Part shown: positions 2 through 51,749 of the stretch, piece by piece
Numbering within the stretch: the first letter of the stretch is position 1
Layout of the letters: every line of letters begins with the position of its first letter
From: Escherichia phage vB_EcoM-UFV06
Sequence record: OP555980.1
DNA length: 64,000 bases
Direction: 5' to 3' (one strand)
Translations under genes and position numbers: made by a program
Notes under the pieces: model-generated
Told to the model about the DNA's origin: nothing
Database searches by the model: none
The model's input: the letters and a program-made list of their open reading frames with translations, nothing else

Positions 2-262
2 AGACCACCAATGTCTAAAGAACACAGAAATAATATCTCAAACGGGCTTAAAGCAATCGTTCTTGAAGAAACATCCTGCGAATTCTGCGGAATGATAGGC
101 AAGAAATGCGTTATCGCAGCGCATAGAAATTTCTGCAAGAAAAATCCAAATGGACGCAAGAAAACTGAAAAGACTGGTACTTGCGTCCATTGTGGTAAAG
201 TTACCACTTTCGGAAATTTATCAAGATGGCATAATGATAACTGTAAATATAAACTTAGCTAA
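2..262 (+). CDS. Partial ORF, frame open to window edge: putative homing-endonuclease-like C-terminal DNA-binding module
   Basis: Only plus-strand ORF in the minus-strand early region, converging on the gene 46 stop; SKEHRNNISNGLK resembles a NUMOD3-type motif; two CxxCG...H.N.C zinc-ribbon-like repeats. Confidence 0.3.
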   Translation, partial: RPPMSKEHRNNISNGLKAIVLEETSCEFCGMIGKKCVIAAHRNFCKKNPNGRKKTEKTGTCVHCGKVTTFGNLSRWHNDNCKYKLS

Positions 263-1943
263 TCTTAGCTAAACTAAATCTACCAACTTTTTCCATCTGA
301 ATATGCTGACCATATTCTTGTGGGTCATGGTCTTTATGTGAAATTATGAAGAAGTTGGTATCCTTCAAACCATCTAAAATTTTAGCTACATTTTTAATAC
401 CTTCAGCATCAAATGCACCGTCATACACTTCATCAAGAAATAAACAACTTATTTTAACACCTGAAACTTTTTCAGCAATATCACGCCAAGTAAATAAAAG
501 AGCAATATCAATTCGCGCTTTTTCACCTTGACTGAATGAAGCATAACTAAAATCTTCACGACCACGGGATTTAATTGTCTCATTAAATTCTTCATCTAAT
601 GTAAACACATAATCCGCTTCCATTATTTTAAGATAATGGTTAATCTGCTTATTAAATAATGGAATGTACTTTTTAATAATAGCACCTTTAATACCAGAAT
701 CTTTGAGCATATCAGTCAAAATTCCTCGGTGGTATTTTTCCATTACTAAATTAGTTTTTGTCTTAACAATTTTATCAAGTTCTTCTTGAAGCAGTGCTAT
801 TTCATCAGCATGGTCAATAAACTCAGAAGATGCTTTTTCTATAGCCGCTTTAACCTTTTTAGCTTTATCTACTGCTGCGATCAGAGATTGCTTTTTATTG
901 CGAATATCATTTGCCAACGACTGCTGGGTTTTAATATTATCTCGGTATTCATCAACAAGAACTTTTAAATTATCACGATGTGTTGAAAGATGTTCAAACG
1001 AATGCGTGCATTCAGAAACTTTATCTTTAATTTTAGAAACAACTTTATCACCGGAACTTAATTGTGACAAACAGGTTGGACATAATCCACCTTCGTGATA
1101 CATATTAATGACTTTATTATACGAGTCAATTTTTGATTTAATTAAAACTGCTTCTTGACCGATTTTATTAAATGCATCAGTCGGGTCTTCATCTAAAACA
1201 ATATTAACTAATCTTTCATTAGCTTCTTCTATTTCCGATTTTAGCGTTCTAGCTTCTTTTGCCAAATCATCATACATATTTTGAAGACGAGTAAGGTTGT
1301 CACCCGTTAATTTTTTCTGGCGTTCAACGTTATCATTATATATTTTAATTTGTTGGATAATACTATCTTTTTTAACATCAAGCACTTGGTTTTGTGAATT
1401 TAATTCACGTATTAGTGCTTTATTAAGCTTATCCATTTCAGCTAATGTTCCTACCTCGAGCAGGTCTTCCACAAGCTTTCTTCGCGCAGGGGTCGACAAA
1501 CCCATGAAAGGGGTATACCCTGCTGTACCAAGGACAACAATCTGCTTGAAACTGGCATATGACATTCCGATAAGCTGTTCAAATTCTGCTTGGAAATCTT
1601 TACTGCTGGCAGATTCATTAAGACGTGTACCGTTAACGGTGATTTCGAAAACGTTTGGTTTTTGTCCTCTTTTGATATAATACTTTTTCTCATCATATTC
1701 CATCCACAGTTCAACTAAAAGTTCTTTCTTATTTGTGCTGTTTATTAATTGACCTTTCTTTACATCACGAAATGGCTTGCCAAAAAGCCCAAATGTGATG
1801 GCTTCTAACATAGTAGACTTACCACCGCCATTTCGTCCAGTAATAAGAGTTTTTTGAACCTTATCTAATTGAATGTCAATAGGATTTCCACCTACTGACA
1901 TTATATTTTGATACCTAACTCGGTTTAGTTTAAAATTCTTCAC
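255..1943 (-). CDS. 46: Recombination endonuclease subunit gp46 (Rad50/SbcC-like ATPase)
   Basis: 562 aa; Walker A GRNGGGKST; long coiled coils with CPTC hook; D-loop LFLDEV; apparent GTG start; synteny with 47. Confidence 0.9.
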   Translation of the reverse strand: MKNFKLNRVRYQNIMSVGGNPIDIQLDKVQKTLITGRNGGGKSTMLEAITFGLFGKPFRDVKKGQLINSTNKKELLVELWMEYDEKKYYIKRGQKPNVFEITVNGTRLNESASSKDFQAEFEQLIGMSYASFKQIVVLGTAGYTPFMGLSTPARRKLVEDLLEVGTLAEMDKLNKALIRELNSQNQVLDVKKDSIIQQIKIYNDNVERQKKLTGDNLTRLQNMYDDLAKEARTLKSEIEEANERLVNIVLDEDPTDAFNKIGQEAVLIKSKIDSYNKVINMYHEGGLCPTCLSQLSSGDKVVSKIKDKVSECTHSFEHLSTHRDNLKVLVDEYRDNIKTQQSLANDIRNKKQSLIAAVDKAKKVKAAIEKASSEFIDHADEIALLQEELDKIVKTKTNLVMEKYHRGILTDMLKDSGIKGAIIKKYIPLFNKQINHYLKIMEADYVFTLDEEFNETIKSRGREDFSYASFSQGEKARIDIALLFTWRDIAEKVSGVKISCLFLDEVYDGAFDAEGIKNVAKILDGLKDTNFFIISHKDHDPQEYGQHIQMEKVGRFSLAKIS

Positions 1944-2203
1944 AAAAGATTCCTTTTAATGTATCTTTTAGACCATTCTATCATATCATCATAATCTAAA
2001 AAGTATTCATCAAATTCAGCCATGCAAACAACACCTTGTGCTGCTTTTGATGTGATATAAATTATTCCAACATATCTAGAATCTTCTTCGGTATAATCAA
2101 TATTTGCTATGAATTCATCATTAATGTCAAATGTCGAAAACTTCACAGTATGCATCCTTAATACAAGATACAGCCATATCTTGTAATGATTTAGGTGTAT
2201 CAT
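1940..2203 (-). CDS. Hypothetical small protein (87 aa)
   Basis: ORF abutting the gene 46 start; ATG start. Confidence 0.35.
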   Translation of the reverse strand: MIHLNHYKIWLYLVLRMHTVKFSTFDINDEFIANIDYTEEDSRYVGIIYITSKAAQGVVCMAEFDEYFLDYDDMIEWSKRYIKRNLL

Positions 2204-3584: not shown

Positions 3585-4785
3585 ATTTTGTAATAATGTC
3601 AAACTGCTCTTTAAAGCAGAAGCTTGAATCTTGGTGCTGATACAAAAATTCATAAGCTTTTTCGCGTTCACGGTCATAAAGAGTTCGGTCAGATGACAGT
3701 TCTTTAATACGTTCAAATGTTGATTCCATGTCATTTTCATCAAACCAAATGATACCGCTATCATGCGAGGTCAAAGGAGTATTATCAACACGGAATTTTA
3801 AATTTTCGCCTGTAGATTTCCAAAATACCGGAATTGTTCCACATGCACCAAGCTCGAGATGAGTATATTCTAAAGAACGTTGTAGATATTTTTTGTCCAA
3901 CTTACTCAGCTGATAACCAAATCCGGATTTACTCATGCGTTCAAGCATTTCGCTATTTACATAACGGTCAAGAATTTGCGTTGGCAAATTAGGAGCAATT
4001 TTAATTTGGTCTACTTGATGAAGACGATAATACTCGTATGGAATTCCTTTTTCTTTAATAGGAATGAACGCTGGAGAACGTTCCAGACCTTCCATAATAG
4101 TACTTAGTCCTGCAGGTTTAAGATGTTTTTCATGAAAATCAAACATCTGATAAAAACCTTTCCATGTAGTAGTACGACCAATCCAACGATTGATATTCAT
4201 GTTAATTTCAGAAACATCTTTCCAGTAGGTTGATCGAACCTTTGCAATATCCATCGGAGGCTGAAAGTTATATACTGTCGGTGCTTCTTCAATATCATCA
4301 AACAGAGAAACTGTTTCAGGATACCATTCTTTCATCAGAACTTTATTAAAATCGCCATTATCAGAATGGCTAAAAATAACATCAGCTCGACGAACAGTTT
4401 CTTCTAATCCCAAATTTCGACGCAAAGAAAGAGAAGAATGGTCATGTTGATAAACTACAACACGAACAGAAGGTTTAATGTTATCAATAATTTTTTTATA
4501 GTTATTAATAGTGTCTTCTTCAACTGAAGTAGCAGGAACTGAATTGATAATTAGAATATCACAATCATTTACCAGCTTAAGTGTTTTATCGTATTCTTTT
4601 GCCAATAAAACCGGAATTGAAAATGATTTATAATCATGCGCGCAATTACGAGTAAATGATTTATCTTTAGCATAAACCAAAGTTACTTCATGACCATTTT
4701 TAATAAACCAATCACGTTGCTCAAGAGAAAATTTAGTTACACCACAACCTTCAAGACCTCGAGCCATAAAAATACATACTTTCAT
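3583..4785 (-). CDS. a-gt: DNA alpha-glucosyltransferase
   Basis: 400 aa; matches my recollection of T4 AGT length and sequence; position between 47 and 55. Confidence 0.85.
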   Translation of the reverse strand: MKVCIFMARGLEGCGVTKFSLEQRDWFIKNGHEVTLVYAKDKSFTRNCAHDYKSFSIPVLLAKEYDKTLKLVNDCDILIINSVPATSVEEDTINNYKKIIDNIKPSVRVVVYQHDHSSLSLRRNLGLEETVRRADVIFSHSDNGDFNKVLMKEWYPETVSLFDDIEEAPTVYNFQPPMDIAKVRSTYWKDVSEINMNINRWIGRTTTWKGFYQMFDFHEKHLKPAGLSTIMEGLERSPAFIPIKEKGIPYEYYRLHQVDQIKIAPNLPTQILDRYVNSEMLERMSKSGFGYQLSKLDKKYLQRSLEYTHLELGACGTIPVFWKSTGENLKFRVDNTPLTSHDSGIIWFDENDMESTFERIKELSSDRTLYDREREKAYEFLYQHQDSSFCFKEQFDIITK

Positions 4786-13381: not shown

Positions 13382-13641
13382 TTAAAGTATTCTCGCAGTT
13401 GGTCAAATCCACCAATATGACTTCCATCAGGAGCAAATACCTGAGGCATTGTCAAGCCGATTTGAGTATCACGACTTAGTTTAGTCAGAAGCTCAGCGAT
13501 TTTCTCATCATCAAAAACACCTTTTTCCGGCATAATGTTGATAAATTCAAACGGCTGTTTCTTCACGGTCAAAAGACGTTTTGCATTATCACAATACACA
13601 CATTTATGGATGTTGCTATCATAACCATATAATTTAAACAT
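13378..13641 (-). CDS. nrdC: Phage thioredoxin/glutaredoxin
   Basis: 87 aa; CVYC active site; matches recalled T4 NrdC. Confidence 0.85.
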   Translation of the reverse strand: MFKLYGYDSNIHKCVYCDNAKRLLTVKKQPFEFINIMPEKGVFDDEKIAELLTKLSRDTQIGLTMPQVFAPDGSHIGGFDQLREYFK

Positions 13642-13642
13642 A

Positions 13643-13885
13643 TTATTCCTTAATTCCTAGTACTTGTTTAAAAGTCTCGTCGTAATCAAGACTTTGGCCC
13701 GTTTGTTCTTTATGTTTGTATATAATATCACTTACTTCTGATAGCATATTTTTATATGAACGAGTTAAAGCAGATTTAAGCACGCTGTATCTATCAGGAA
13801 ATTTACCGTGTTCATTATAATAAGCTATTGCTAATTCACGGACTGCCTTTTCAGCAGCCTCCATATATTCTTTACGCTTGGTCAT
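13643..13885 (-). CDS. Hypothetical protein (about 80 aa)
   Basis: ATG at 13885 abuts the upstream stop. Confidence 0.4.
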
Positions 13886-13886
13886 T

Positions 13887-14276
13887 TTAATCCAAAATAT
13901 TATTAGGCATTGGTTGAACACTCACAAGTTCTTTAAAGAACTCAGTAGAGTCAGGCAATTTAACCATTTCCGGAGCATGCTTACTGAATTTATGTTTACA
14001 TTGACGGCATTTATATTCAAGCTCTGGTTTACGCCAGTTAATCAATTGAACTTGTTCAGTACCGCATTCAGGGCAATTAGGAACGTTTTTAGAAGCTCTT
14101 TCACGTCGTTCAACCATAGCCATAATAGCATCCCATGCTGGAGGTTTAAAATCTAAATCGTCGCAGCCGTGAATCTTTCCACGCATTTCCATATCATCTT
14201 CCTCACCAGCCATAATAATTTTAATTAGACTAGAATTACTTGAAGCTGCAATGTCTTCTAATAAACGCTTTTTCAT
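13887..14276 (-). CDS. Hypothetical zinc-ribbon protein (129 aa)
   Basis: CPECG...CRQC four-cysteine motif. Confidence 0.45.
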
Positions 14277-15199
14277 TTCAATACCTCAATAGCATTACGT
14301 AAACCATTTGCTTTTGCGTTAAGAGATTTTAACAATTTGGTGTGTTCTGCAATTTGGGCTTCAACTTCAATCAAACGGGCATTGAGATATTCGCGTTCTT
14401 CTTTCATAGTATCATTCCCATGATTGGGTTTTGGTGCAGATTTAAATTCACTAGGGTCCTTTAACTTAATAACAAATTTAGTTTCAAACAGTGAAAGACC
14501 ATAATTCGTATTATCATCAAAGGATTTAACTACATCCATATTAGATAATAACTCATGCAAATTATAAGACAAAGAACTAATAGTTTCATTGTGTTTATTA
14601 GCTTCGCGTGGTTTCATATACGGAAGATTTTTATATATCTCATGCGGAGCACAAATGATAATTGACAATTCAAATTGTCCATTCTGGGACGATGGAGTGA
14701 ATTTAGCCGTAACCCAGTCTTTTACATTCACATTAATAGTACGGTTATCACCATGACAAAACAATCTACGAGAATGCTTAAAAAGCATATTCACGTTATT
14801 ATTGAATTCGTGTGAAAATTCACTGGCAAATTTTTCTTTACTATCTTTAGAAAACCATTCTTCTAAATAAGTTCTTTTCACGTCGTTAATAATATTAAAT
14901 GTAACAACATTAGCATTTGATACATTAGTCTCAATGTAGCTTGGATACATAAATTTTTTAACATTATTAACAGCTATCACAGAAGATAGTAATCGGGAAC
15001 GTTTGAACCACTCGAGCAAAGAACCAAGAGAATGTGAATACGCGTTTTGCGTATCTTTACAAATATGGTTTTCCCATCCAATATAGTCTAAAAAATCACG
15101 AAGAATATTATTGATTACTGCTCTGTGTCCTATCTGATAATTACGATGTTTAGTAATAAGACTGTCAAAATAATCAATATAATGTTTACGAGTTTTCAT
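14273..15199 (-). CDS. Hypothetical protein (308 aa) with C-terminal coiled coil
   Basis: First of four tandem 300-340 aa ORFs with heptad-rich C-termini. Confidence 0.5.
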   Translation of the reverse strand: MKTRKHYIDYFDSLITKHRNYQIGHRAVINNILRDFLDYIGWENHICKDTQNAYSHSLGSLLEWFKRSRLLSSVIAVNNVKKFMYPSYIETNVSNANVVTFNIINDVKRTYLEEWFSKDSKEKFASEFSHEFNNNVNMLFKHSRRLFCHGDNRTINVNVKDWVTAKFTPSSQNGQFELSIIICAPHEIYKNLPYMKPREANKHNETISSLSYNLHELLSNMDVVKSFDDNTNYGLSLFETKFVIKLKDPSEFKSAPKPNHGNDTMKEEREYLNARLIEVEAQIAEHTKLLKSLNAKANGLRNAIEVLK

Positions 15200-15253
15200 G
15201 TTCTTCTCACTTGGTTAATGATTTATACTCCGAGCCATCCTTGGCTTTAAATT

Positions 15254-16255
15254 TTACTTAATTAACTGTAAAGCTTGTTCAAGACGATCAAGACGATTAA
15301 CGGATTCTTCCCAAATCTTTTTAGCCTTCTCATATTCTTTCTGTGCTTTATTAGAAATTTCTAGAGCTCCTTTATAAGCTTTTTCTAATGCAATAATTTC
15401 TGGACGAATTTCTACCGGTTCAGGCGAATCATCAAGATTATCCATTAGTTCCTCAAGGGTAGTTTCTTCTTTAGGGGTATTCACAATTTCTTCGCATTTT
15501 TGTTGGTAAATTTCTTTATCAGTCGGTGAATACGCACATTTCACTTCACGAAGACTAACTACAATTTTGTATCCTTCCCAACCACACATATTCTTAAAAG
15601 GATATGTATGAATATTTTCTACTGTTTCCATACAAAGTAATGCAGTCTCTAACTGACGAGTTATAGTGCTAGCAATTGAGAAAAATTTATTAATATTCTT
15701 TTGGTTAGCGTTTGGTGTAAAAAATCCATAATTCACAAAAATAGCTACTTTATTTTCGTCAAGCTCATATTCTTTTACGATAATCATATCAGAAGCCAAA
15801 GGATGAATTTGACGATAATCGCCATAACATAATTTAGAAGCTGATTTTAGAATTTGTCCTTTGAAAAGTCTGAAATTACTAATCCAACGACGAGTAAAAA
15901 TATTCTCAGGGTCTTCTTTATTATTAAGATGATAAGAATTAACATCACCGAACCAATTGTATCCTACTACATTTTTAGTTCGTTTAATTTCTTTCCCAAA
16001 TTTACCAAGAATATCTCTGTTAACTAAATATGAAAGAAGACGAGACCCTTTAAAGGTTTCCTTAATATCATCTTTATCTGCACGACTAGAAATTTTATGA
16101 ACTTCATGAATAAATTTGCTGGAAGAAACAATGCTTGCATCAGTATTATTGAGCCATTGATTGATAATAGAAATAACACTATTCTGACTAGACATAGGTT
16201 TAACTTTATCATCAATAACGCTATTGAATGATTTGATATATTCGTTGCGAGTCAT
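15254..16255 (-). CDS. Hypothetical protein (about 333 aa) with C-terminal coiled coil
   Basis: Probable ATG start at 16255. Confidence 0.5.
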   Translation of the reverse strand: MTRNEYIKSFNSVIDDKVKPMSSQNSVISIINQWLNNTDASIVSSSKFIHEVHKISSRADKDDIKETFKGSRLLSYLVNRDILGKFGKEIKRTKNVVGYNWFGDVNSYHLNNKEDPENIFTRRWISNFRLFKGQILKSASKLCYGDYRQIHPLASDMIIVKEYELDENKVAIFVNYGFFTPNANQKNINKFFSIASTITRQLETALLCMETVENIHTYPFKNMCGWEGYKIVVSLREVKCAYSPTDKEIYQQKCEEIVNTPKEETTLEELMDNLDDSPEPVEIRPEIIALEKAYKGALEISNKAQKEYEKAKKIWEESVNRLDRLEQALQLIK

Positions 16256-16312
16256 ATTAATCTCCTCAGTAGAAAGTAAGAACATTATACCACATCCTTG
16301 TGGCGAAGTAAA

Positions 16313-17332
16313 CTAGTTTAGTGCATTTAGTGCATTGTTCAATTTAGAACGTTGCTTTGTCAGATTTTGAACCCTTGACTGAGCTTGTTCTAACACCTTT
16401 TCAGCTTCTAGCACTTCATTGGTCGCTTTAATGAGTTCAGCATCTACTGCCTTAAGAGACTTCTCAATCGCGTCAGCGTGCCATTTTTCTACAGGTTTAA
16501 AATTTGAATTTTCAGTAGGAAGAAAATTCACTTTATTAAATTTCCATGCATCTTTATTACCTGAGCTATACATCCAAAATTTAGGATCGTTTGATGAGCA
16601 ATTAGATAAATTTAAGTTATCTTGTACTTCCTGCTTTTTCTCTTGCGGGACTTCATCCTTTCTCAAAAAATCGTATTTAAATGAAACGATCATATCAAGT
16701 TCATACGTTGTTGTATGTTCCCAATTTCGCTCAAAATGAGGTAAAATCTTAGACTGAACAGCGGCAACAACATCCATATACTTAAATGCTTCTGTCAACT
16801 GTGATTTAAGGCATTCACAAATTGAAAGAGAATTTTTTGTATTAGGCTTAAAGCTAATTCGTGCAGTTCTATTATTTTCTTTTAACGGTCTTACTTCCAT
16901 CTGAAGAGTATAACCATCAAATTTCAGGTTCTTTAAGTTAATGTCAGAACCTTTTAATCGACTAGCAGTAGACAAAATTTGCTTTAATTGTTTACGGAAT
17001 AAAGCAATAAATCTCCATTCAAGACGATAATGATTTGGATTAAAAAATCCTGTTGATAAATCAACCTTACTCTGACCAACGCCTTGAACAAATAGAGGAT
17101 TTTTATAATCAATAGTTTTACAGAAATCGGTGAGCTGCTCACGAGCAGTCATTTGTGTAATATATCCCGCTTTACTAAAATGACGTAACCATTCACTGCT
17201 ATTCATATACTTAAAGTGAATGGAACTATTAACTCTATCAGGGTCTAAATTATTTTGGCACAAAAATGTCATAACATTACGGGTATAGCTAGCATTACGA
17301 ACCATATCTTCAATTTGAGAACGAGTTTTCAT
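16313..17332 (-). CDS. Hypothetical protein (339 aa) with C-terminal coiled coil
   Basis: ORF. Confidence 0.5.
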   Translation of the reverse strand: MKTRSQIEDMVRNASYTRNVMTFLCQNNLDPDRVNSSIHFKYMNSSEWLRHFSKAGYITQMTAREQLTDFCKTIDYKNPLFVQGVGQSKVDLSTGFFNPNHYRLEWRFIALFRKQLKQILSTASRLKGSDINLKNLKFDGYTLQMEVRPLKENNRTARISFKPNTKNSLSICECLKSQLTEAFKYMDVVAAVQSKILPHFERNWEHTTTYELDMIVSFKYDFLRKDEVPQEKKQEVQDNLNLSNCSSNDPKFWMYSSGNKDAWKFNKVNFLPTENSNFKPVEKWHADAIEKSLKAVDAELIKATNEVLEAEKVLEQAQSRVQNLTKQRSKLNNALNALN

Positions 17333-17340
17333 AGTGTTCC

Positions 17341-18249
17341 TTAAGATTTAAGTAAATCAACAATTTTAATTAATTTTTCACGCTCAGATTTAGCTTTACT
17401 ACTCAATCCAGATAGTCTGAAAATTTCATCGTCATACTGTTGAATAGAAATATTTAGCTCTTCAATTTGCTTATTAAAATAATCAATTTGCTCAGAATGT
17501 TTTTCATTACTGCGAACTGGTATAGGGTTTGTAGGCAATTTAGTTGAACTAGATTCATCCGGGCGATAAATTAAAATACAACTTGAACCAATTGGACATT
17601 TTGCACCAGATGAATATTCTAATGTTCCGGCTTCTTTTAAAACTTCAAAAGCTAAACAGAGATGATGCCCCATATTAACATAATCTGTAGAGCGAGCTCT
17701 GATGTAATAATCATCTCCGCGAATACTAAATTTAAAGCATTTAAGGTCTTCTGTATTATTGGTCTTAAAAATCATTTGTTTATCTAGACCTTTAGCTAAT
17801 CGAGCGCCTAATGCTAATAATCGTCGTTGATTTTCCCACAAATCTGCGATCATTTGGTCAAATGATAATTTCGGCATTAGTCGACCATAAAGGTCATATC
17901 CTTTATTATAATTACGAAGGATTTCACTCGCGTTAATACGAGACAATGCTCCAATTTTATTAAGGGCTTTCATAATGCGATTAGATAAACCCATTCCAGA
18001 CCCGTTTGTTCGCTGCAAATGTTTTTCTAATCCAAATCCAATATCAACTTTAAACTTATCTAAAATTTCTGCATGAACATCTCTGTCAATAACATTCAAA
18101 TCCAAAGTTGGGTTAAATCTATGAAAAAATTTATCTGGCTCTCCACGACGAAGTACAGTCCATTCATTCATTTTTTTATTAACTAAAGATTTAATTACTG
18201 TATTGACATTATTAATTACTACTGACATATTTTCCTCACTCAATTTCAA
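17341..18249 (-). CDS. Hypothetical protein (302 aa) with C-terminal coiled coil
   Basis: ORF. Confidence 0.5.
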   Translation of the reverse strand: MKLSEENMSVVINNVNTVIKSLVNKKMNEWTVLRRGEPDKFFHRFNPTLDLNVIDRDVHAEILDKFKVDIGFGLEKHLQRTNGSGMGLSNRIMKALNKIGALSRINASEILRNYNKGYDLYGRLMPKLSFDQMIADLWENQRRLLALGARLAKGLDKQMIFKTNNTEDLKCFKFSIRGDDYYIRARSTDYVNMGHHLCLAFEVLKEAGTLEYSSGAKCPIGSSCILIYRPDESSSTKLPTNPIPVRSNEKHSEQIDYFNKQIEELNISIQQYDDEIFRLSGLSSKAKSEREKLIKIVDLLKS

Positions 18250-18643
18250 TTTTACTAAATATACAGAATATGATGGAAAAGACTATATAAGCACCACAAA
18301 CAGATTGAACTAATACCATTCCAAAGAACCAAACAATATTATCAAACCATGTCTGTTTTACGTCGAAAGGACGTAAACTTACAGTAATATTATCACCTTT
18401 TTCTATTGAAGAATACATCTCTGGGGAAATATATTCACTAAATCTATAACCGTCTTTGAGTTCATATACAGCAATAAACGATAAACTAGACCCCTTTCCT
18501 TGTGTTCCTGTAATAGTATTAACTACAGTAACATCATAATCTTTATAATGCATATAATCATTAATTGCGTAATAACCATATGCAACTACTACACATAAAC
18601 AACATATCAATAAATTCAATCTTTTAATTATCAACTGTTTCAT
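18236..18643 (-). CDS. Hypothetical membrane protein (135 aa)
   Basis: Hydrophobic N- and C-terminal segments. Confidence 0.45.
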   Translation of the reverse strand: MKQLIIKRLNLLICCLCVVVAYGYYAINDYMHYKDYDVTVVNTITGTQGKGSSLSFIAVYELKDGYRFSEYISPEMYSSIEKGDNITVSLRPFDVKQTWFDNIVWFFGMVLVQSVCGAYIVFSIIFCIFSKIEIE

Positions 18644-18698
18644 AATAATCTCAATTAAAAGGGCTTAGAACCATTATACCATCCTTGGTATAAAGCGG

Positions 18699-19226
18699 TT
18701 ATGCGAGTACCGTCTTTAACCGTTCTTCAAACTTCCGAAGAGTATTCTGGCGTTCAGCTCTTTGCTTTTTGTAAGTTTCAATACGCTCTGAAATGAGAGT
18801 GTATCGTTCATTTACTGATTCTTTCATAAAATCAGGAATTTCACGAGAAGCTTTAATCTCGTCAAATTTATCAATAACAGCTTGCTCTTCAGCAATTAAG
18901 TTATCATACATCAAAATATCTTTCTTGATGAACTCAATATCTTCTTGAGTTACACGAGATAATTTAAATGCTTTATCCTTTTTGTACTGTTCGTTAGTAT
19001 CACGAGACCAGTGTAATGTACGATTTTTATTCGTATTCTTATAAATTTCTACAATACCAATATCATCAATAATAACGATCCAATTCCAACGGGATTTGTA
19101 AATTTGTCCTCCATCAACTGTGATTTCACCTCCGATTGAGATGTCATTAAAGAACTTGCTTTGTGCTTCTGATTTAAATTTACCATCGTTGTAATTTACC
19201 AAGTTGAAAATATCTTTAGCGTTCAT
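18699..19226 (-). CDS. Hypothetical protein (about 175 aa)
   Basis: ATG at 19226 with GGAGG Shine-Dalgarno; the track N-terminal extension is translated promoter sequence. Confidence 0.5.
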   Translation of the reverse strand: MNAKDIFNLVNYNDGKFKSEAQSKFFNDISIGGEITVDGGQIYKSRWNWIVIIDDIGIVEIYKNTNKNRTLHWSRDTNEQYKKDKAFKLSRVTQEDIEFIKKDILMYDNLIAEEQAVIDKFDEIKASREIPDFMKESVNERYTLISERIETYKKQRAERQNTLRKFEERLKTVLA

Positions 19227-19254
19227 TTTCTGTTCCTCCGTAGTTGATAGTTGT

Positions 19255-19283
19255 ATAGTACCACAGAGGAACAGTCTTGTAAA
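19255..19283 (-). promoter_or_regulatory. Early promoter (sigma70-type)
   Basis: Minus-strand TTTACA, 17 bp, TACTAT; member of a conserved repeated block. Confidence 0.6.
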
Positions 19284-19286
19284 CAA

Positions 19287-19601
19287 CTAAAAGAAACTTC
19301 TTTCACAATTTTTTCCACTGAACCACGCGCTCACTGCTTTCTTAGTCTCAGGAGCAGTGTTATCCATAAACCATTCAAAGGCAGCCTTTTTATGATTCTG
19401 GAGGGCTTCTCGGGCTTTAATCTGCTCACGGTCTATTAACACTAACATATGAGCCTTTCTTGTCACCATGGGCTTCTTATGATTTTTTGAATATTCCCAA
19501 TCATTTGTCCATCGCATCGTTGTTGCGAATTGAAGTACAGCTTCTTTAATTTTAGTTTCGTAAATTTCACGAGCCTTTGAGTATAACATTACTACCTCCA
19601 T
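19287..19601 (-). CDS. Hypothetical protein (104 aa)
   Basis: ORF. Confidence 0.45.
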   Translation of the reverse strand: MEVVMLYSKAREIYETKIKEAVLQFATTMRWTNDWEYSKNHKKPMVTRKAHMLVLIDREQIKAREALQNHKKAAFEWFMDNTAPETKKAVSAWFSGKNCERSFF

Positions 19602-19690
19602 TTACCAGTTTAATTCTAGTCATCTTTTTGATGGCAGTCCATATAATCTATTTCTGAACTGCCTTTTTATCTTAGAAGGCCTCTTATGAA

Positions 19691-20659
19691 TTATTTCAGA
19701 AGAGTAACCTCAGCGATTTCTTCCCAACCGTTTTTGTCGGTCATAATAAAGTCAGCAAGATAAAGAGCAGTACGCAGTGAAACATTGCGTAAACGATTAA
19801 CATTGACTTTCATCCATGATAATGCTTTATAAGTTTCTTCATCAGAAAGACCGCGCTTTTGCATCATGTCAGTTGAAAGAATAACATCTTCAACCCTGAC
19901 CATAATTTCTTCATTAGTGTGAACACCCAAATCCAAATAAACTGAGCGGGACACTAATGCTTGTAAATGTGGAGCAAGTTTAGTACCACGGTCTAATTCG
20001 CGGTCAATGTCAACGTTTGTGATAAAAACAATCGTTCCTTTAAATTCAAACTCACGCTCAATGCCTTTTTCTTCTAAGTAAGAAGATGCAGTGCTCCAGC
20101 AGACTTTACGGGTCTCTCCAGTGTCCAGAGCAGCTTTCAGAAGATTAAGAATGTCCATATCAGAGAAAACATCCACATCATCAATCAAAAGGACAGAATT
20201 CTCTTCACGATTATTCCAAAGCTGCTCATAAAGACCAATACCAGAGATTTTACCATTAATGCTTTTATATTCAATGTATCCAATATCATTTGCTTTATTT
20301 AAAGCTTTATCTAAAGAATACGTTTTACCAATACCCGCCGCACCAGAGATAATTAATGAACGAATGTTTCCGTTAATAATACCATTCGTCATCATTCCCA
20401 TAACATTAAATCTTTTATTAATGCGGGTTTTCATATCTTCATATGATTCTTTAACTTCTTCAACTTTTACACCATCATATGAAATGTCTGATTTGTAAAC
20501 CCAAACACCGCGACGTTTACCGTCAATTTCAACAAAAACTTTACCATCTCCTTGTGCATCTACTGGGGCATTATCAGGGAACCACTCACCTAAGAGTTCA
20601 AAAGTTCCAGAGATTTCTTTGCCAAAGTAGATACCCTTATTGATAGTTACAGTTTTCAT
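19691..20659 (-). CDS. P-loop/AAA-type ATPase, function unknown
   Basis: Walker A GAAGIGKTYS and Walker B LLIDDVD; ATG at 20659 downstream of an early promoter. Confidence 0.6.
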   Translation of the reverse strand: MKTVTINKGIYFGKEISGTFELLGEWFPDNAPVDAQGDGKVFVEIDGKRRGVWVYKSDISYDGVKVEEVKESYEDMKTRINKRFNVMGMMTNGIINGNIRSLIISGAAGIGKTYSLDKALNKANDIGYIEYKSINGKISGIGLYEQLWNNREENSVLLIDDVDVFSDMDILNLLKAALDTGETRKVCWSTASSYLEEKGIEREFEFKGTIVFITNVDIDRELDRGTKLAPHLQALVSRSVYLDLGVHTNEEIMVRVEDVILSTDMMQKRGLSDEETYKALSWMKVNVNRLRNVSLRTALYLADFIMTDKNGWEEIAEVTLLK

Positions 20660-20693
20660 TTTATTCTCCAAATCCGTATCAGTTGATAGTTGT

Positions 20694-20722
20694 ATAGTAC
20701 CATAAAGCTTTATGCTTGTAAA
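20694..20722 (-). promoter_or_regulatory. Early promoter (sigma70-type)
   Basis: Minus-strand TTTACA, 17 bp, TACTAT; same conserved block. Confidence 0.6.
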
Positions 20723-20754
20723 CTGTTTTGTGAAAAAATTTTTGAAATAAAAAA

Positions 20755-20772
20755 GGGAGCCCGAAGGCTCCC
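20755..20772 (-). terminator. Intrinsic terminator
   Basis: gggagcc-cgaa-ggctccc stem-loop followed by TTTTTT on the minus strand. Confidence 0.65.
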
Positions 20773-20774
20773 TA

Positions 20775-21788
20775 TCATTTATAATAACTTCGGTGGTTTT
20801 CAAGATAGACCTTCTCAAGGAAGTCATCCCAGAAACCCATGTCTACTTTTTGCTGCATACCGTTCTTAGAAGCTTCAGTAGATGCTGCTTCTACTTGATC
20901 GACCACATCTTCCAAAAACTCTTGAACTGTTTTAAATGGATGTTTACCCAACTTCACGTCGAGAATAAATGGAGCGTCTTGAAGTGGATAAACTAAGTCA
21001 CCAGTTTTGTAAATTTCCAATAGTTGAAGTCCACCACGACAGGCATGGCTCAGAGCTTTCCAGTCAATACCTTCATTGGCTTCGGCCTTACGAGCACGTT
21101 CACCATATTCAGCATCTAATTTGTTCAGTGACTGCTTAAGCTCAATAAGAGAAAGCGTTGTCTGATATTTACGACCCAACACAGTGTAGAACGTTTGTGG
21201 GCCTGTTTTCTCATGATTATGGAACACCCATTCACAGAATTCGTTTTCTGGAAGACGATGCTTAATATCTTCAATTTTAGTGCGACGTTGTCCTTGTGTT
21301 CCATCTTCTCGGTAGACATTCCGTTGATCAGGAATTTGATTAACTACTTTCAACACATCACGTAATGCAGCCAAACGAGAACCCTTGACACCGTATTTAG
21401 AAGCTTGCTTGCGAACATATCCTAAATAGGATTTCATGTTAGTCGTATAAAAACGAGAACGATTGTCTTGAATAAACTTCCACACATCAGGCAAATCAGA
21501 TTTAACCACTAGTTCAGGTGGAGTGTGAAGCATATCCAATGCTACAGTTTCACCATCTGCTGCTAATTTAAAGAAATACTTAAGACTATACAATTCGTGG
21601 TCAATATCATCTTTAGTGTTTTTAGATGATGTGTTGTTAGTGTTTTTACTCATGTGCTCTTTGACATTTCCAATAAGAATATCGCGAGCAGGAGGAACAA
21701 AGATTTCTTTAAAATCTACATCAGATTCTGGAGTAGAAGTTCCATAAAGATGACTACCAAAATAGCTTTTCATTACTGTTTTCATCAT
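20775..21788 (-). CDS. Predicted nucleotidyltransferase (pol-beta superfamily fold)
   Basis: N-terminal GSHLYGTSTPESDVDF matches the G[SG]x(9-13)DxD nucleotidyltransferase signature; 337 aa. Confidence 0.5.
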   Translation of the reverse strand: MMKTVMKSYFGSHLYGTSTPESDVDFKEIFVPPARDILIGNVKEHMSKNTNNTSSKNTKDDIDHELYSLKYFFKLAADGETVALDMLHTPPELVVKSDLPDVWKFIQDNRSRFYTTNMKSYLGYVRKQASKYGVKGSRLAALRDVLKVVNQIPDQRNVYREDGTQGQRRTKIEDIKHRLPENEFCEWVFHNHEKTGPQTFYTVLGRKYQTTLSLIELKQSLNKLDAEYGERARKAEANEGIDWKALSHACRGGLQLLEIYKTGDLVYPLQDAPFILDVKLGKHPFKTVQEFLEDVVDQVEAASTEASKNGMQQKVDMGFWDDFLEKVYLENHRSYYK

Positions 21789-22246
21789 TCAGCCTTATAT
21801 TCAATAACAGGACATACTTTAGCTTTACGGGCTTTTAAAAATTCGACGATAATAGATTTCTTGGGTTGAATAGGAGGTAAACCTTTATACGCCCTATCAA
21901 TATTTTCTACATGTAAAGCATAATCCTTTTTCCATTTATAATCTTTATATTTTTCATGCAGTTGTGCAGGAATAACAAATGAACCAATAATAAGTAAAAC
22001 AAGCAAAATGGCAAGTATAAATGCCGATGGAATAAGAGTCCATAAACTACCAAAAATAAGCCATTTCTGTATGATTTCTGCGCAGATAATAGTTAGACCT
22101 GCGAGTATAGTACATCCGAAAAAAGAAACGAAAAATGTAGGGATAACAATAGACCAAAAGTATGCACACAGTGTCTTAGGTCGTTTCCATTCGTCGTTAA
22201 ACAGTTTGAATAATTTATAGTGCCAAGAGTTTTCATTAATAATCAT
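21785..22246 (-). CDS. Hypothetical membrane protein (153 aa)
   Basis: Two long hydrophobic segments. Confidence 0.45.
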   Translation of the reverse strand: MIINENSWHYKLFKLFNDEWKRPKTLCAYFWSIVIPTFFVSFFGCTILAGLTIICAEIIQKWLIFGSLWTLIPSAFILAILLVLLIIGSFVIPAQLHEKYKDYKWKKDYALHVENIDRAYKGLPPIQPKKSIIVEFLKARKAKVCPVIEYKAE

Positions 22247-43002: not shown

Positions 43003-44713
43003 TAACCTTAATTGGTTTGTTGGTGTTGTTGAAGATAGAATGGACCCATTAAAATTAGGTCGTGTTCGTGTTCGTGTGGTTGGTCTGCATCCACCACAAA
43101 GAGCACAAGGTGATGTAATGGGTATTCCAACTGAAAAATTGCCATGGATGTCAGTTATTCAGCCTATAACTTCGGCAGCTATGTCTGGAATTGGAGGTTC
43201 CGTTACTGGACCGGTAGAAGGAACTAGAGTTTATGGTCATTTTTTGGACAAATGGAAAACTAATGGAATTGTTCTTGGCACGTATGGTGGAATAGTTCGC
43301 GAAAAACCGAATAGACTTGAAGGATTTTCTGACCCGACTGGGCAATATCCTAGACGTTTAGGAAATGATACTAACGTACTAAACCAAGGCGGAGAAGTAG
43401 GATATGATTCGTCTTCTAACATTATCCAAGATAGTAACTTAGACACTGCAATAAATCCTGATGATAGACCACTATCAGAGATTCCAACTGATGATAATCC
43501 AAATATGTCAATGGCTGAAATGCTTCGCCGTGATGAAGGATTAAGACTAAAAGTTTATTGGGATACCGAAGGATATCCGACAATTGGTATTGGTCATCTT
43601 ATCATGAAGCAGCCAGTTCGTGATATGGCTCAAATTAATAAAGTTTTATCGAAACAAGTTGGTCGTGAAATTACTGGAAACCCAGGTTCTATTACAATGG
43701 AAGAAGCGGTAACTTTATTTGAACGCGATTTGGCTGATATGCAACGTGACATTAAATCACATTCTAAAGTAGGACCAGTCTGGCAAGCTGTCAACCGTTC
43801 TCGTCAAATGGCATTAGAAAATATGGCATTTCAGATGGGTGTTGGCGGTGTAGCTAAATTTAACACAATGTTAACTGCTATGTTAGCAGGAGATTGGGAA
43901 AAAGCATATAAAGCTGGTCGTGATTCATTGTGGTATCAACAAACAAAAGGCCGTGCATCCCGTGTTACCATGATTATTCTTACGGGGAATTTGGAATCAT
44001 ATGGTGTTGAAGTGAAAACTCCAGCTAGGTCTTTGTCGGCAATGGCTGCTACTGTGGCGAAGTCTTCTGATCCAGCTGACCCTCCTATTCCAAATGACTC
44101 AAGAATTTTATTCAAAGAACCAGTTTCTTCATATAAAGGCGAATATCCTTATGTGCATACAATGGAAACTGAAAGTGGACATATTCAGGAATTTGATGAT
44201 ACCCCTGGGCAAGAACGATATAGATTAGTTCATCCAACTGGAACTTATGAAGAAGTATCACCGTCAGGGAGAAGAACAAGAAAAACTGTTGATAATTTGT
44301 ATGATATAACCAACGCTGATGGTAATTTTTTGGTAGCCGGTGATAAAAAGACTAACGTCGGTGGTTCAGAAATTTATTATAACATGGATAATCGTCTTCA
44401 CCAAATAGATGGAAGCAATACAATATTTGTACGTGGCGATGAAACTAAGACGGTTGAAGGTAATGGAACTATCCTAGTTAAAGGTAATGTTACTATTGTA
44501 GTTGAAGGTAATGCTGACATTACAGTTAAAGGAGATGCTACTACGTTAGTTGAAGGTAATCAAACTAATACAGTAAATGGAAATCTTTCTTGGAAAGTTG
44601 CTGGGACAGTTGATTGGGACGTTGGTGGTGATTGGACAGAAAAAATGGCATCTATGAGTTCTATTTCATCTGGTCAATACACAATTGATGGATCGAGGAT
44701 TGACATTGGCTAA
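42986..44713 (+). CDS. 5: Baseplate hub/cell-puncturing protein gp5 with lysozyme domain
   Basis: 575 aa; internal lysozyme domain MLRRDEGLRLKVYWDTEGYPTIGIGHL; C-terminal VEGN beta-helix repeats. Confidence 0.95.
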   Translation: MEMISNNLNWFVGVVEDRMDPLKLGRVRVRVVGLHPPQRAQGDVMGIPTEKLPWMSVIQPITSAAMSGIGGSVTGPVEGTRVYGHFLDKWKTNGIVLGTYGGIVREKPNRLEGFSDPTGQYPRRLGNDTNVLNQGGEVGYDSSSNIIQDSNLDTAINPDDRPLSEIPTDDNPNMSMAEMLRRDEGLRLKVYWDTEGYPTIGIGHLIMKQPVRDMAQINKVLSKQVGREITGNPGSITMEEAVTLFERDLADMQRDIKSHSKVGPVWQAVNRSRQMALENMAFQMGVGGVAKFNTMLTAMLAGDWEKAYKAGRDSLWYQQTKGRASRVTMIILTGNLESYGVEVKTPARSLSAMAATVAKSSDPADPPIPNDSRILFKEPVSSYKGEYPYVHTMETESGHIQEFDDTPGQERYRLVHPTGTYEEVSPSGRRTRKTVDNLYDITNADGNFLVAGDKKTNVGGSEIYYNMDNRLHQIDGSNTIFVRGDETKTVEGNGTILVKGNVTIVVEGNADITVKGDATTLVEGNQTNTVNGNLSWKVAGTVDWDVGGDWTEKMASMSSISSGQYTIDGSRIDIG

Positions 44714-50500: not shown

Positions 50501-50622
50501 TATTTGATGCATCTGGAACAACATTTGCACAATTTAGAGATTTAGTTAATAAACGTCTAAAAGATAATATAGGAAATCCAAGAGACCCTGAAAATCCAAC
50601 ACAGGTTAAAATAGATGAATGA
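47524..50622 (+). CDS. 7: Baseplate wedge protein gp7
   Basis: 1032 aa; synteny. Confidence 0.9.
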   Translation: MTVKAPSVTSLRISKLSANQVQVRWDDVGANFYYFVEIAETKSNSGKNLPSNQYRWINLGYTANNSFFFDDADPLTSYVIRVATAAQDFEQSDWIYTEEFETFATNAYTFQNMIEMQLANKFIQEKFTLNNSDYVNFNNDTIMAALMNESFQFSPSYADVSSISNFIIGENEYHEIQGSIQQVCKDINRVYLMESEGILYLFERYQPVVKVSNDKGQTWKAVKLFNDRVGYPLSKTVYYQSANTTYVLGYDKIFYGRKSTDVRWSADDVRFSSQDITFAKLGDQLHLGFDVEIFATYATLPANVYRIAEAITCTDDYIYVVARDKVRYIKTSNAPIDSDPLSPTYSERLFEPDTMTITGNPKAVCYKMDSIGDKVFALIIGEVETLNANPRTSKIIDSADKGIYVLNHDTKTWKRVFGNTEEERRRIQPGYANMSTDGKLVSLSSSNFKFLSDNIVNDPETAVKYQLIDAVKYEFPREWLADKHYHMMAFIADEKSDWETFTPQPMKYYAEPFFNWSKKSNTRCWINNSDKAVVVYADLKYTKVIENIPETSPDRLVHEYWDDGDCTIVMPNVKFTGFKKYASGMLFYKSSGEIISYYDFNYRVRDTVEIIWKPTEVFLKAFLQNQERETPWSPEEERGLADPDLRPLIGTMMPDSYLLQDSNFEAFCEAYIQYLSDGYGTQYNNLRNLIRNQYPREEHAWEYLWSEIYKRNIYLNADKRDAVARFFESRSYDFYSTKGIEASYKFLFKVLYNEEVEIEIESGAGTEYDVIIQSDSLTEDLVGQTIYTATGRCNVTYIERSYSNGKLQWTVTIHNLLGRLIAGQEVKAERLPGFEGEIIRGVKGKDLLQNNIDYINRSRSYYVMKIKSNLPSSRWKSDVIRFVHPVGFGFIAITLLTMFINVGLTLKHTETIINKYKNYKWDSGLPTEYADRVAKLTPTGEIEHDSVTGEAIYEPGPMSGIEYPLPGDYNTENNNSVFQGQLPSERRKLMSPLFDASGTTFAQFRDLVNKRLKDNIGNPRDPENPTQVKIDE

Positions 50623-51718
50623 TTCAAGTGTTATCTATCGTGCGATAGTTACTTCAAAATTTAGAACAGAAAAAATGTTGAATTTTTATAATTCAATTGG
50701 AAGTGGTCCGGATAAAAACACTATCTTTATCACATTTGGAAGATCAGAACCGTGGTCATCAAATGAAAATGAGGTGGGCTTTGCCCCACCTTATCCTACC
50801 GATTCTGTATTAGGTGTAACTGACATGTGGACTCATATGATGGGAACAGTAAAAGTTCTTCCATCAATGCTTGATGCTGTTATTCCTCGCAGAGATTGGG
50901 GAGATACTAGATATCCGGATCCATACACATTTAGAATTAATGATATTGTAGTGTGCAACTCAGCTCCTTACAACGCTACTGAATCAGGCGCAGGCTGGTT
51001 AGTATATCGTTGTTTAGATGTTCCTGATACCGGAATGTGTTCAATAGCATCTTTAACTAATAAGGATGAATGTCTTAAATTAGGTGGAAAATGGACTCCT
51101 TCTGCTAGGTCAATGACTCCTCCTGAAGGCCGAGGAGATGCTGAAGGAACAATTGAACCTGGCGATGGATATGTATGGGAATATCTTTTTGAGATTCCGC
51201 CTGATGTATCTATAAATAGATGCACGAATGAGTATATTGTAGTTCCTTGGCCTGAGGAATTAAAAGAAGACCCGACTAGATGGGGGTATGAAGATAATCT
51301 CACTTGGCAGCAAGATGATTTTGGATTAATTTACCGTGTTAAGGCAAATACTATCCGTTTTAAAGCATATTTAGATTCAGTTTATTTTCCTGAAGCTGCA
51401 TTGCCGGGAAATAAAGGATTTAGACAAATATCAATAATTACGAATCCTCTTGAAGCTAAAGCTCATCCAAATGACCCAAATGATTTTCCTGAAGCTGCAT
51501 TGCCGGGAAATAAAGGATTTAGACAAATATCAATAATTACGAATCCTCTTGAAGCTAAAGCTCATCCAAATGACCCAAATGTTAAAGCTGAAAAGGATTA
51601 TTATGATCCGGAAGATTTAATGAGGCATTCGGGCGAAATGATTTATATGGAAAATAGGCCACCTATTATTATGGCAATGGATCAGACAGAAGAAATCAAT
51701 ATTCTGTTTACATTTTAA
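50615..51718 (+). CDS. 8: Baseplate wedge protein gp8, with internal 33-aa tandem duplication
   Basis: 367 aa, which is the recalled T4 length of 334 plus 33; residues 258-290 repeated as 291-323. Confidence 0.85.
   Translation: MNDSSVIYRAIVTSKFRTEKMLNFYNSIGSGPDKNTIFITFGRSEPWSSNENEVGFAPPYPTDSVLGVTDMWTHMMGTVKVLPSMLDAVIPRRDWGDTRYPDPYTFRINDIVVCNSAPYNATESGAGWLVYRCLDVPDTGMCSIASLTNKDECLKLGGKWTPSARSMTPPEGRGDAEGTIEPGDGYVWEYLFEIPPDVSINRCTNEYIVVPWPEELKEDPTRWGYEDNLTWQQDDFGLIYRVKANTIRFKAYLDSVYFPEAALPGNKGFRQISIITNPLEAKAHPNDPNDFPEAALPGNKGFRQISIITNPLEAKAHPNDPNVKAEKDYYDPEDLMRHSGEMIYMENRPPIIMAMDQTEEINILFTF
51384..51582 (+). repeat. Perfect 99-bp direct tandem duplication inside gene 8
   Basis: Two adjacent 99-bp copies, identical by eye, in frame. 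Confidence 0.9.
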
Positions 51719-51723
51719 ATTAA

Positions 51724-51746
51724 GGGAGCCCATGGGCTCCCTTTTT
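51724..51746 (+). terminator. Intrinsic terminator after gene 8
   Basis: gggagcc-catg-ggctccc stem-loop followed by TTTTT. Confidence 0.7.
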
Positions 51747-51749
51747 CTT

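Follow-up and report, generated by a model that had tools for sequence, protein, structure and literature searches.

The genomes of T4-type phages are circularly permuted. Genuine tandem duplications in T4 are known from classical genetics, where they typically arise between short direct repeats and are unstable. Repeats have also been traced to the assembly of sequencing reads. In the CheckV study, the terminal repeats of contigs pile up at lengths of 55, 77 and 99 bp, and the study (PMC8116208, Extended Data Fig. 3 legend) puts these lengths down to assembler k-mers and to the opening of circular templates at random places, by which a repeat is left. A related case is the Klebsiella phage Tokugawa, where hybrid assembly and Sanger sequencing showed that an internal repeat of 79 bp in the short-read assembly was an artefact (PMC10438801).

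Here we describe a tandem repeat of 99 bp in the baseplate gene 8 of Escherichia phage vB_EcoM-UFV06 (OP555980.1). The analysis covers a stretch of 64,000 nucleotides of this record, referred to as the window, and all positions are given in window coordinates unless another record is named. We compared the window with the records of UFV05, UFV09, UFV10 and UFV11, which like UFV06 are Tequatrovirus isolates from one Brazilian laboratory. The repeat is a real feature of the sequence record, and it is almost certainly not a feature of the phage itself.

Results

The repeat was delimited using Tandem Repeats Finder, which reported an array at 51384..51581 with a period of 99, 2.0 copies, 100% matches, no indels and a score of 396. 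Copy 1 (51384..51482) and copy 2 (51483..51581), both on the plus strand, were the same letter for letter in a direct string comparison. The initial annotation had described two adjacent, identical copies of 99 bp lying in frame inside gene 8, and both methods uphold this description. Its end coordinate of 51582 was one base too far, as the array ends at 51581. In a scan of the 64-kb window for perfect tandem duplications with periods from 15 to 400, the array at 51384..51581 was the only one found, which places it far beyond chance.

The joining of the two copies creates a new junction at 51476..51489 on the plus strand, where the sequence reads CCAAATG/ATTTTCC. The base preceding copy 1 is a T compared to the final G of the unit, and the base following copy 2 is a T compared to its initial A. 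Comparison of the flanks thus gave a junction microhomology of 0 bases. Within the unit itself the heptamer CCAAATG occurs twice, at unit positions 84-90 and 93-99.

The array lies in an open reading frame for 367 aa at 50615..51718 on the plus strand. When the predicted protein was compared with T4 gp8 (PDB 1n7z, 334 aa), the match had an E value of 1e-247 and fell into two stretches, residues 1-288 of the query aligning to residues 1-288 of gp8 and residues 291-367 to residues 258-334. The Pfam family PF09215 (Phage-Gp8) likewise matched in two stretches (E 2.5e-209). The gene is situated between homologues of genes 7 and 9, and the products of its upstream and downstream neighbors are annotated in a sister record as baseplate wedge initiator and baseplate wedge tail fibre connector, respectively. 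Judged by its sequence, the reading frame therefore encodes a homologue of T4 gp8, the baseplate wedge protein of the PF09215 family, with 33 extra residues. The length of 334 aa that the initial annotation had given for T4 gp8 agrees with the PDB entry.

The first base of the unit is the second of codon 257, and the residues repeated exactly are therefore 258-289 (32 aa). The junction codon, G/AT, is predicted to add a new Asp, so that the total gain is 33 residues and the peptide across the two copies is predicted to read ...AHPNDPNDFPEAALPGNK... The repeated segment had been given as residues 258-290; the number of extra residues was correct, and the exact repeat is one residue shorter, the junction contributing the Asp. 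When one of the two copies is removed, the protein has the 334 aa of T4 gp8, and the aligned part differs from T4 gp8 at a single position, N for D near residue 149. The remaining difference is the 33 extra residues after residue 289, which are absent from the other listed members of the protein cluster. A prediction of the 367-aa protein with AlphaFold2, run on the single sequence without an alignment, had a mean pLDDT of 30 and a pTM of 0.18, values too low for the model to be of use.

Two further sequence elements were observed in the surroundings of gene 8 and in another baseplate gene. At 51722..51749, directly downstream of the stop codon of gene 8, the GC-rich sequence GGGAGCCCATGGGCTCCC forms a perfect palindrome and precedes a T run, an arrangement that resembles an intrinsic terminator placed between genes 8 and 9. 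At 44453..44584, imperfect tandem repeats of 24/48 bp with 73-83% matches are found in a gene whose annotation in a sister record reads baseplate hub structural protein / lysozyme. They may reflect the C-terminal beta-helix of T4 gp5, which is repetitive and with which they are consistent.

We then looked at the distribution of the duplicated gene among known sequences. The exact 367-aa protein occurred once in approximately 15 billion proteins, as UYL84018.1, the ‘baseplate wedge subunit’ of vB_EcoM-UFV06 itself. The other listed members of its cluster have 334 aa or are shorter fragments. At the nucleotide level, gene 8 matches in 654 phage records spanned 1005 bp, as expected for a single copy, the one exception being UFV05 with 1014 bp; in UFV06 the gene is 1104 bp long. 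A 60-mer placed across the UFV06 junction matched phage records only in split form, its two pieces lying at a distance of 99 bases, and a 38-mer across the same junction had no exact match in the collections viral_contigs, metagenome_contigs and genome_contigs. The initial annotation had considered that all orthologs might already carry two diverged copies. Instead, a single copy was found in T4 gp8 and in all relatives.

Over 24 kb the window was 100.0% identical to UFV09 (MZ291552.2), UFV10 (OP555981.1) and UFV11 (OP555982.1), apart from the 99 extra bases in the window. Deleting either of the two copies restored the sequence of all relatives. After removal of 51483..51581, the window differed from MZ291552.2 32012..95912 by 3 mismatches in 63,901 bases, and the comparison with version 2 of the UFV09 record is thus essentially one within the same phage.

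The three mismatches, the only base differences between the window and UFV09 version 2, are located at 4165, 56495 and 56501. One of them falls in the alpha-glucosyltransferase gene. The other two, at a distance of 6 bases from each other, lie towards the 3′ end of a gene annotated as ‘straight tail fiber’ which occupies the place of gene 12 in T4, and this pair of substitutions might bear on receptor binding.

To see how the UFV06 repeat compares with the sister assemblies, these were scanned for perfect tandem duplications with the same range of periods (15-400). For UFV06 the scan covered the 64-kb window. UFV10 and UFV11 were scanned directly over 1-72 kb, and for the remainder we relied on colinearity and the arithmetic of coordinates. 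The UFV06 window, UFV09 version 2, UFV10 and UFV11 each contained one perfect tandem duplication and no more. The period was 99 in every case, and the four sites were all different. In UFV09 version 2 the duplication is located at MZ291552.2 148775..148972, in a long-tail-fibre CDS (homologue of gp34), where the matching region has 397 bases compared to 298 in more than 500 other records. It is private to MZ291552.2, as UFV05, UFV10 and UFV11 are among the records with 298 bases. The UFV10 duplication, at OP555981.1 11793..11991, extends an ADP-ribosyltransferase CDS to 702 bp from the 603 bp seen in UFV11. The one in UFV11, at OP555982.1 55601..55798, falls in a small hypothetical CDS of 273 bp (174 bp in UFV09), and the corresponding site is present in a single copy in the UFV06 window. 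By coordinate arithmetic, the interval from rIIA to gene 8 is 99 bases longer in UFV10 and in UFV11 than in UFV09.

The lengths of the records show the same increment. UFV09, UFV10 and UFV11 are all 165,859 nt long, which equals 165,760 + 99. The UFV06 record, with 165,858 nt, is one base below this sum. UFV05 has 165,776 nt, or 165,760 + 7 + 9, and by this arithmetic is without a 99-bp extra. Microhomology at the four 99-bp junctions amounted to 0, 0, 0 and 1 bases (0 in UFV06), which does not exceed what is expected of arbitrary breakpoints. All sister records that we examined begin at rIIA, the offset ranging from 0 to 11 bases, which indicates that they were rotated after assembly. The two ends of UFV09 version 2 (MZ291552.2) share no exact overlap; its 99-bp extra is internal instead.

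UFV05 shows two smaller private changes. One is a 9-bp insertion, CCAAATGAC, which adds Pro-Asn-Asp and sits precisely on the right-hand boundary of the 99-bp unit, where the wild-type sequence already reads CCAAATGACCCAAATG (OP572230.1 about 83485..83502; window 51467..51482). This insertion was found in no other of the 654 records. If a 99-bp end overlap had been trimmed at the wrong CCAAATG, that is by 90 and not 99 bases, a residue of exactly 9 bp would be left, and the UFV05 contig would then have broken where that of UFV06 did. Alternatively, the insertion could be a real slippage event. The second change is a 7-bp tandem duplication in rIIA (ACAATCC ACAATCC, at about 1486-1500 of the analysed stretch of OP572230.1) relative to UFV09. 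It splits rIIA into two CDS, 12..1385 and 1438..2196; either UFV05 is truly mutant, with a frameshift in rII, or its sequence contains a further error here.

The UFV09 record exists in more than one version. Version 2 (MZ291552.2) contains new accessions for gp8 (UXR08749.1), for the long tail fibre with the 99-bp duplication (UXR08759.1) and for approximately 30 other proteins, which suggests that with the re-assembly of UFV09 the artefact ended up in a different gene. We considered whether the position of UXR08749.1 among neighbors with old QWT accessions could prove that version 1 carried a duplication in gene 8. As new UXR accessions are also found for approximately 20 proteins across the 64 kb, the change is not specific to gp8, and we rejected it as proof and regard it as a weak hint.

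The annotation of the sister records has peculiarities of its own. In MZ291552.2 45654..53799 (window about 13640..21790), approximately ten consecutive CDS are labelled ‘thioredoxin’, including ORFs of approximately 1 kb, and OP555981.1 contains further runs of this kind labelled ‘molybdenum ABC transporter’. All these runs look like spill-over from an automated annotation pipeline and not like real functions.

Discussion

From the sequence alone, a real duplication of 99 bp that was correctly assembled is in principle compatible with what is seen in gene 8. Taking the sister assemblies into account, we are highly confident that the 99-bp duplication in UFV06 is an artefact of assembly and curation and does not belong to the phage genome. 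We base this on the repeat, its absence from near-identical genomes, the private repeats of the sister records, the arithmetic of the record lengths, the rotation seen in the sister records and a lack of microhomology at the junction. Several marks of an assembly artefact are present: the period of 99 is a common assembler word length; the two copies match at 100% and abut each other, their breakpoints being arbitrary; near-identical genomes and independent assemblies are without the second copy; a repeat of the same length occurs once each in UFV09, UFV10 and UFV11, with a total equal to the circle plus k; and the start points of the sister records point to re-orientation after assembly.

The repeat most probably arose as follows. 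Short reads from a circularly permuted, T4-like genome assemble as a circle. A de Bruijn graph assembler with a final k of 99 would open this circle at an arbitrary place and emit a linear contig that ends with the same 99 bases with which it begins. If the submitters then rotated the contig to the start of rIIA, following the T4 convention, and left the overlap untrimmed, the two identical 99-mers would come to lie side by side at the former contig ends, which in UFV06 would fall inside gene 8. Copy 1 (51384..51482) would then probably be the 99 bases that closed the original contig, and copy 2 (51483..51581) the 99 that opened it. Neither PMC11425119 nor PMC8468216 gives an assembly method for the UFV phages; we thus infer the k value of 99, and likewise the assembler and the manual rotation step. 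An insertion of 99 bases, a multiple of 3, leaves the reading frame open in whichever gene it hits. Gene callers consequently report a 367-aa ‘baseplate wedge subunit’, and the error passes through annotation into the protein databases.

The foremost alternative is a genuine and very recent in-frame duplication in gene 8 of UFV06, generated by replication slippage or illegitimate recombination and tolerated in the wedge, which would lengthen gp8 by 33 residues. We consider this highly improbable. It would explain why the duplication is in frame and leaves the gp8 ORF intact, and private mutations are possible since UFV06 is a separate isolate that differs from UFV09 by 3 SNPs. The 9-bp expansion in UFV05 at the short CCAAATGAC/CCAAATG repeat, located at the right edge of the unit, could moreover mark a slippage-prone site. 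Against this stands, above all, the finding that three sister assemblies have perfect 99-bp repeats in unrelated genes, which is not expected of independent real mutations. The length of 99 is in addition a known assembler k value (PMC8116208). Slippage would normally leave microhomology at the endpoints, where we found 0 bases, and an independent molecule with the same junction was seen neither among all other phage records nor in the three contig collections. The biology of T4 argues in the same direction, as gp8 is essential and tightly packed in the wedge, and a perfect direct repeat of 99 bp would rapidly be collapsed through T4 recombination unless it were selected.

The initial annotation had left two readings of the repeat standing, a very recent real duplication and a sequencing or assembly artefact. 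The private 99-bp repeats of the sister records lend strong support to the latter, and the former is not borne out. The biology that had been built on it, in which a 33-residue surface segment is added to a wedge protein and structural genes grow by slipped duplication, finds no support in view of near-identical sisters without the second copy that have their own 99-bp repeats elsewhere, and of the lack of microhomology. There is only a very slim chance that the duplication is physically present in UFV06 virions and that the 99-bp lengths in the sisters are a coincidence or a separate artefact. If this were true, UFV06 would be a viable T4-like phage whose baseplates contain gp8 with a 33-residue in-frame insertion.

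The repeat could also be an artefact of another origin, such as a collapse or expansion during polishing, or an error in scaffolding or merging two contigs that overlap in gene 8. The 9-bp residue in UFV05 at the same site and the replaced gp8 accession in MZ291552.2 suggest recurrent trouble with gene 8 in the assemblies of this laboratory. The constant length of 99 bp, its occurrence once per genome and totals of circle + 99 are better accounted for by a circular k-mer overlap, and we regard a polishing or merging error as very unlikely. The verdict would in any case be the same, namely that the repeat is not biology. Lastly, a phage-encoded or host process that makes one tandem duplication of exactly 99 bp per lineage at a random site can practically be dismissed: four near-identical genomes with one 99-bp duplication each at different sites are what it would produce, yet we know of no such mechanism, each duplication is private to one database record, the length is that of an assembler parameter, essential genes (gp8, gp34) are struck by copies without divergence, and UFV05 by length arithmetic has none.

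As a retained k-mer overlap, the duplication has no biological significance and is a matter of data quality only. Four public ‘complete genome’ records would each hold a silent in-frame duplication of 99 bp, affecting gp8, gp34, an ADP-ribosyltransferase and a small ORF, and the over-long proteins that result are now in NCBI nr and the databases derived from it. The divisibility of 99 by 3 lets k-mer artefacts of this class pass through gene calling. A useful screen would be to search for perfect tandem duplications that lie internally and have the period of a standard k (21, 33, 55, 77, 99, 127 and so on). Such repeats, in particular those of the frame-preserving k = 99, should be filtered out before they are read as recent evolution.

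Among the systems described previously, the genuine duplications of T4 resemble the UFV06 repeat in being head-to-tail repeats in a T4-type genome. They differ from it in that UFV06 has no microhomology at the junction and that the same length recurs at unrelated sites in its sisters. The 79-bp repeat of Tokugawa is closer, being a short, k-mer-sized internal repeat in a phage assembly made from short reads only. It comes from another phage family and has another length, and its artefactual nature was verified experimentally, whereas for UFV06 we deduce it from the sister assemblies. The direct terminal repeats of k-mer length described with CheckV are found at contig ends, whereas the UFV06 copies are internal and adjacent, as would result from rotation to rIIA without trimming. 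Once the copies have become internal in this way, repeats of the UFV06 type are invisible to the detection of terminal repeats at contig ends. With the CheckV repeats the duplication in UFV06 shares perfect copies, a standard k length, an arbitrary breakpoint and a circular or permuted template.
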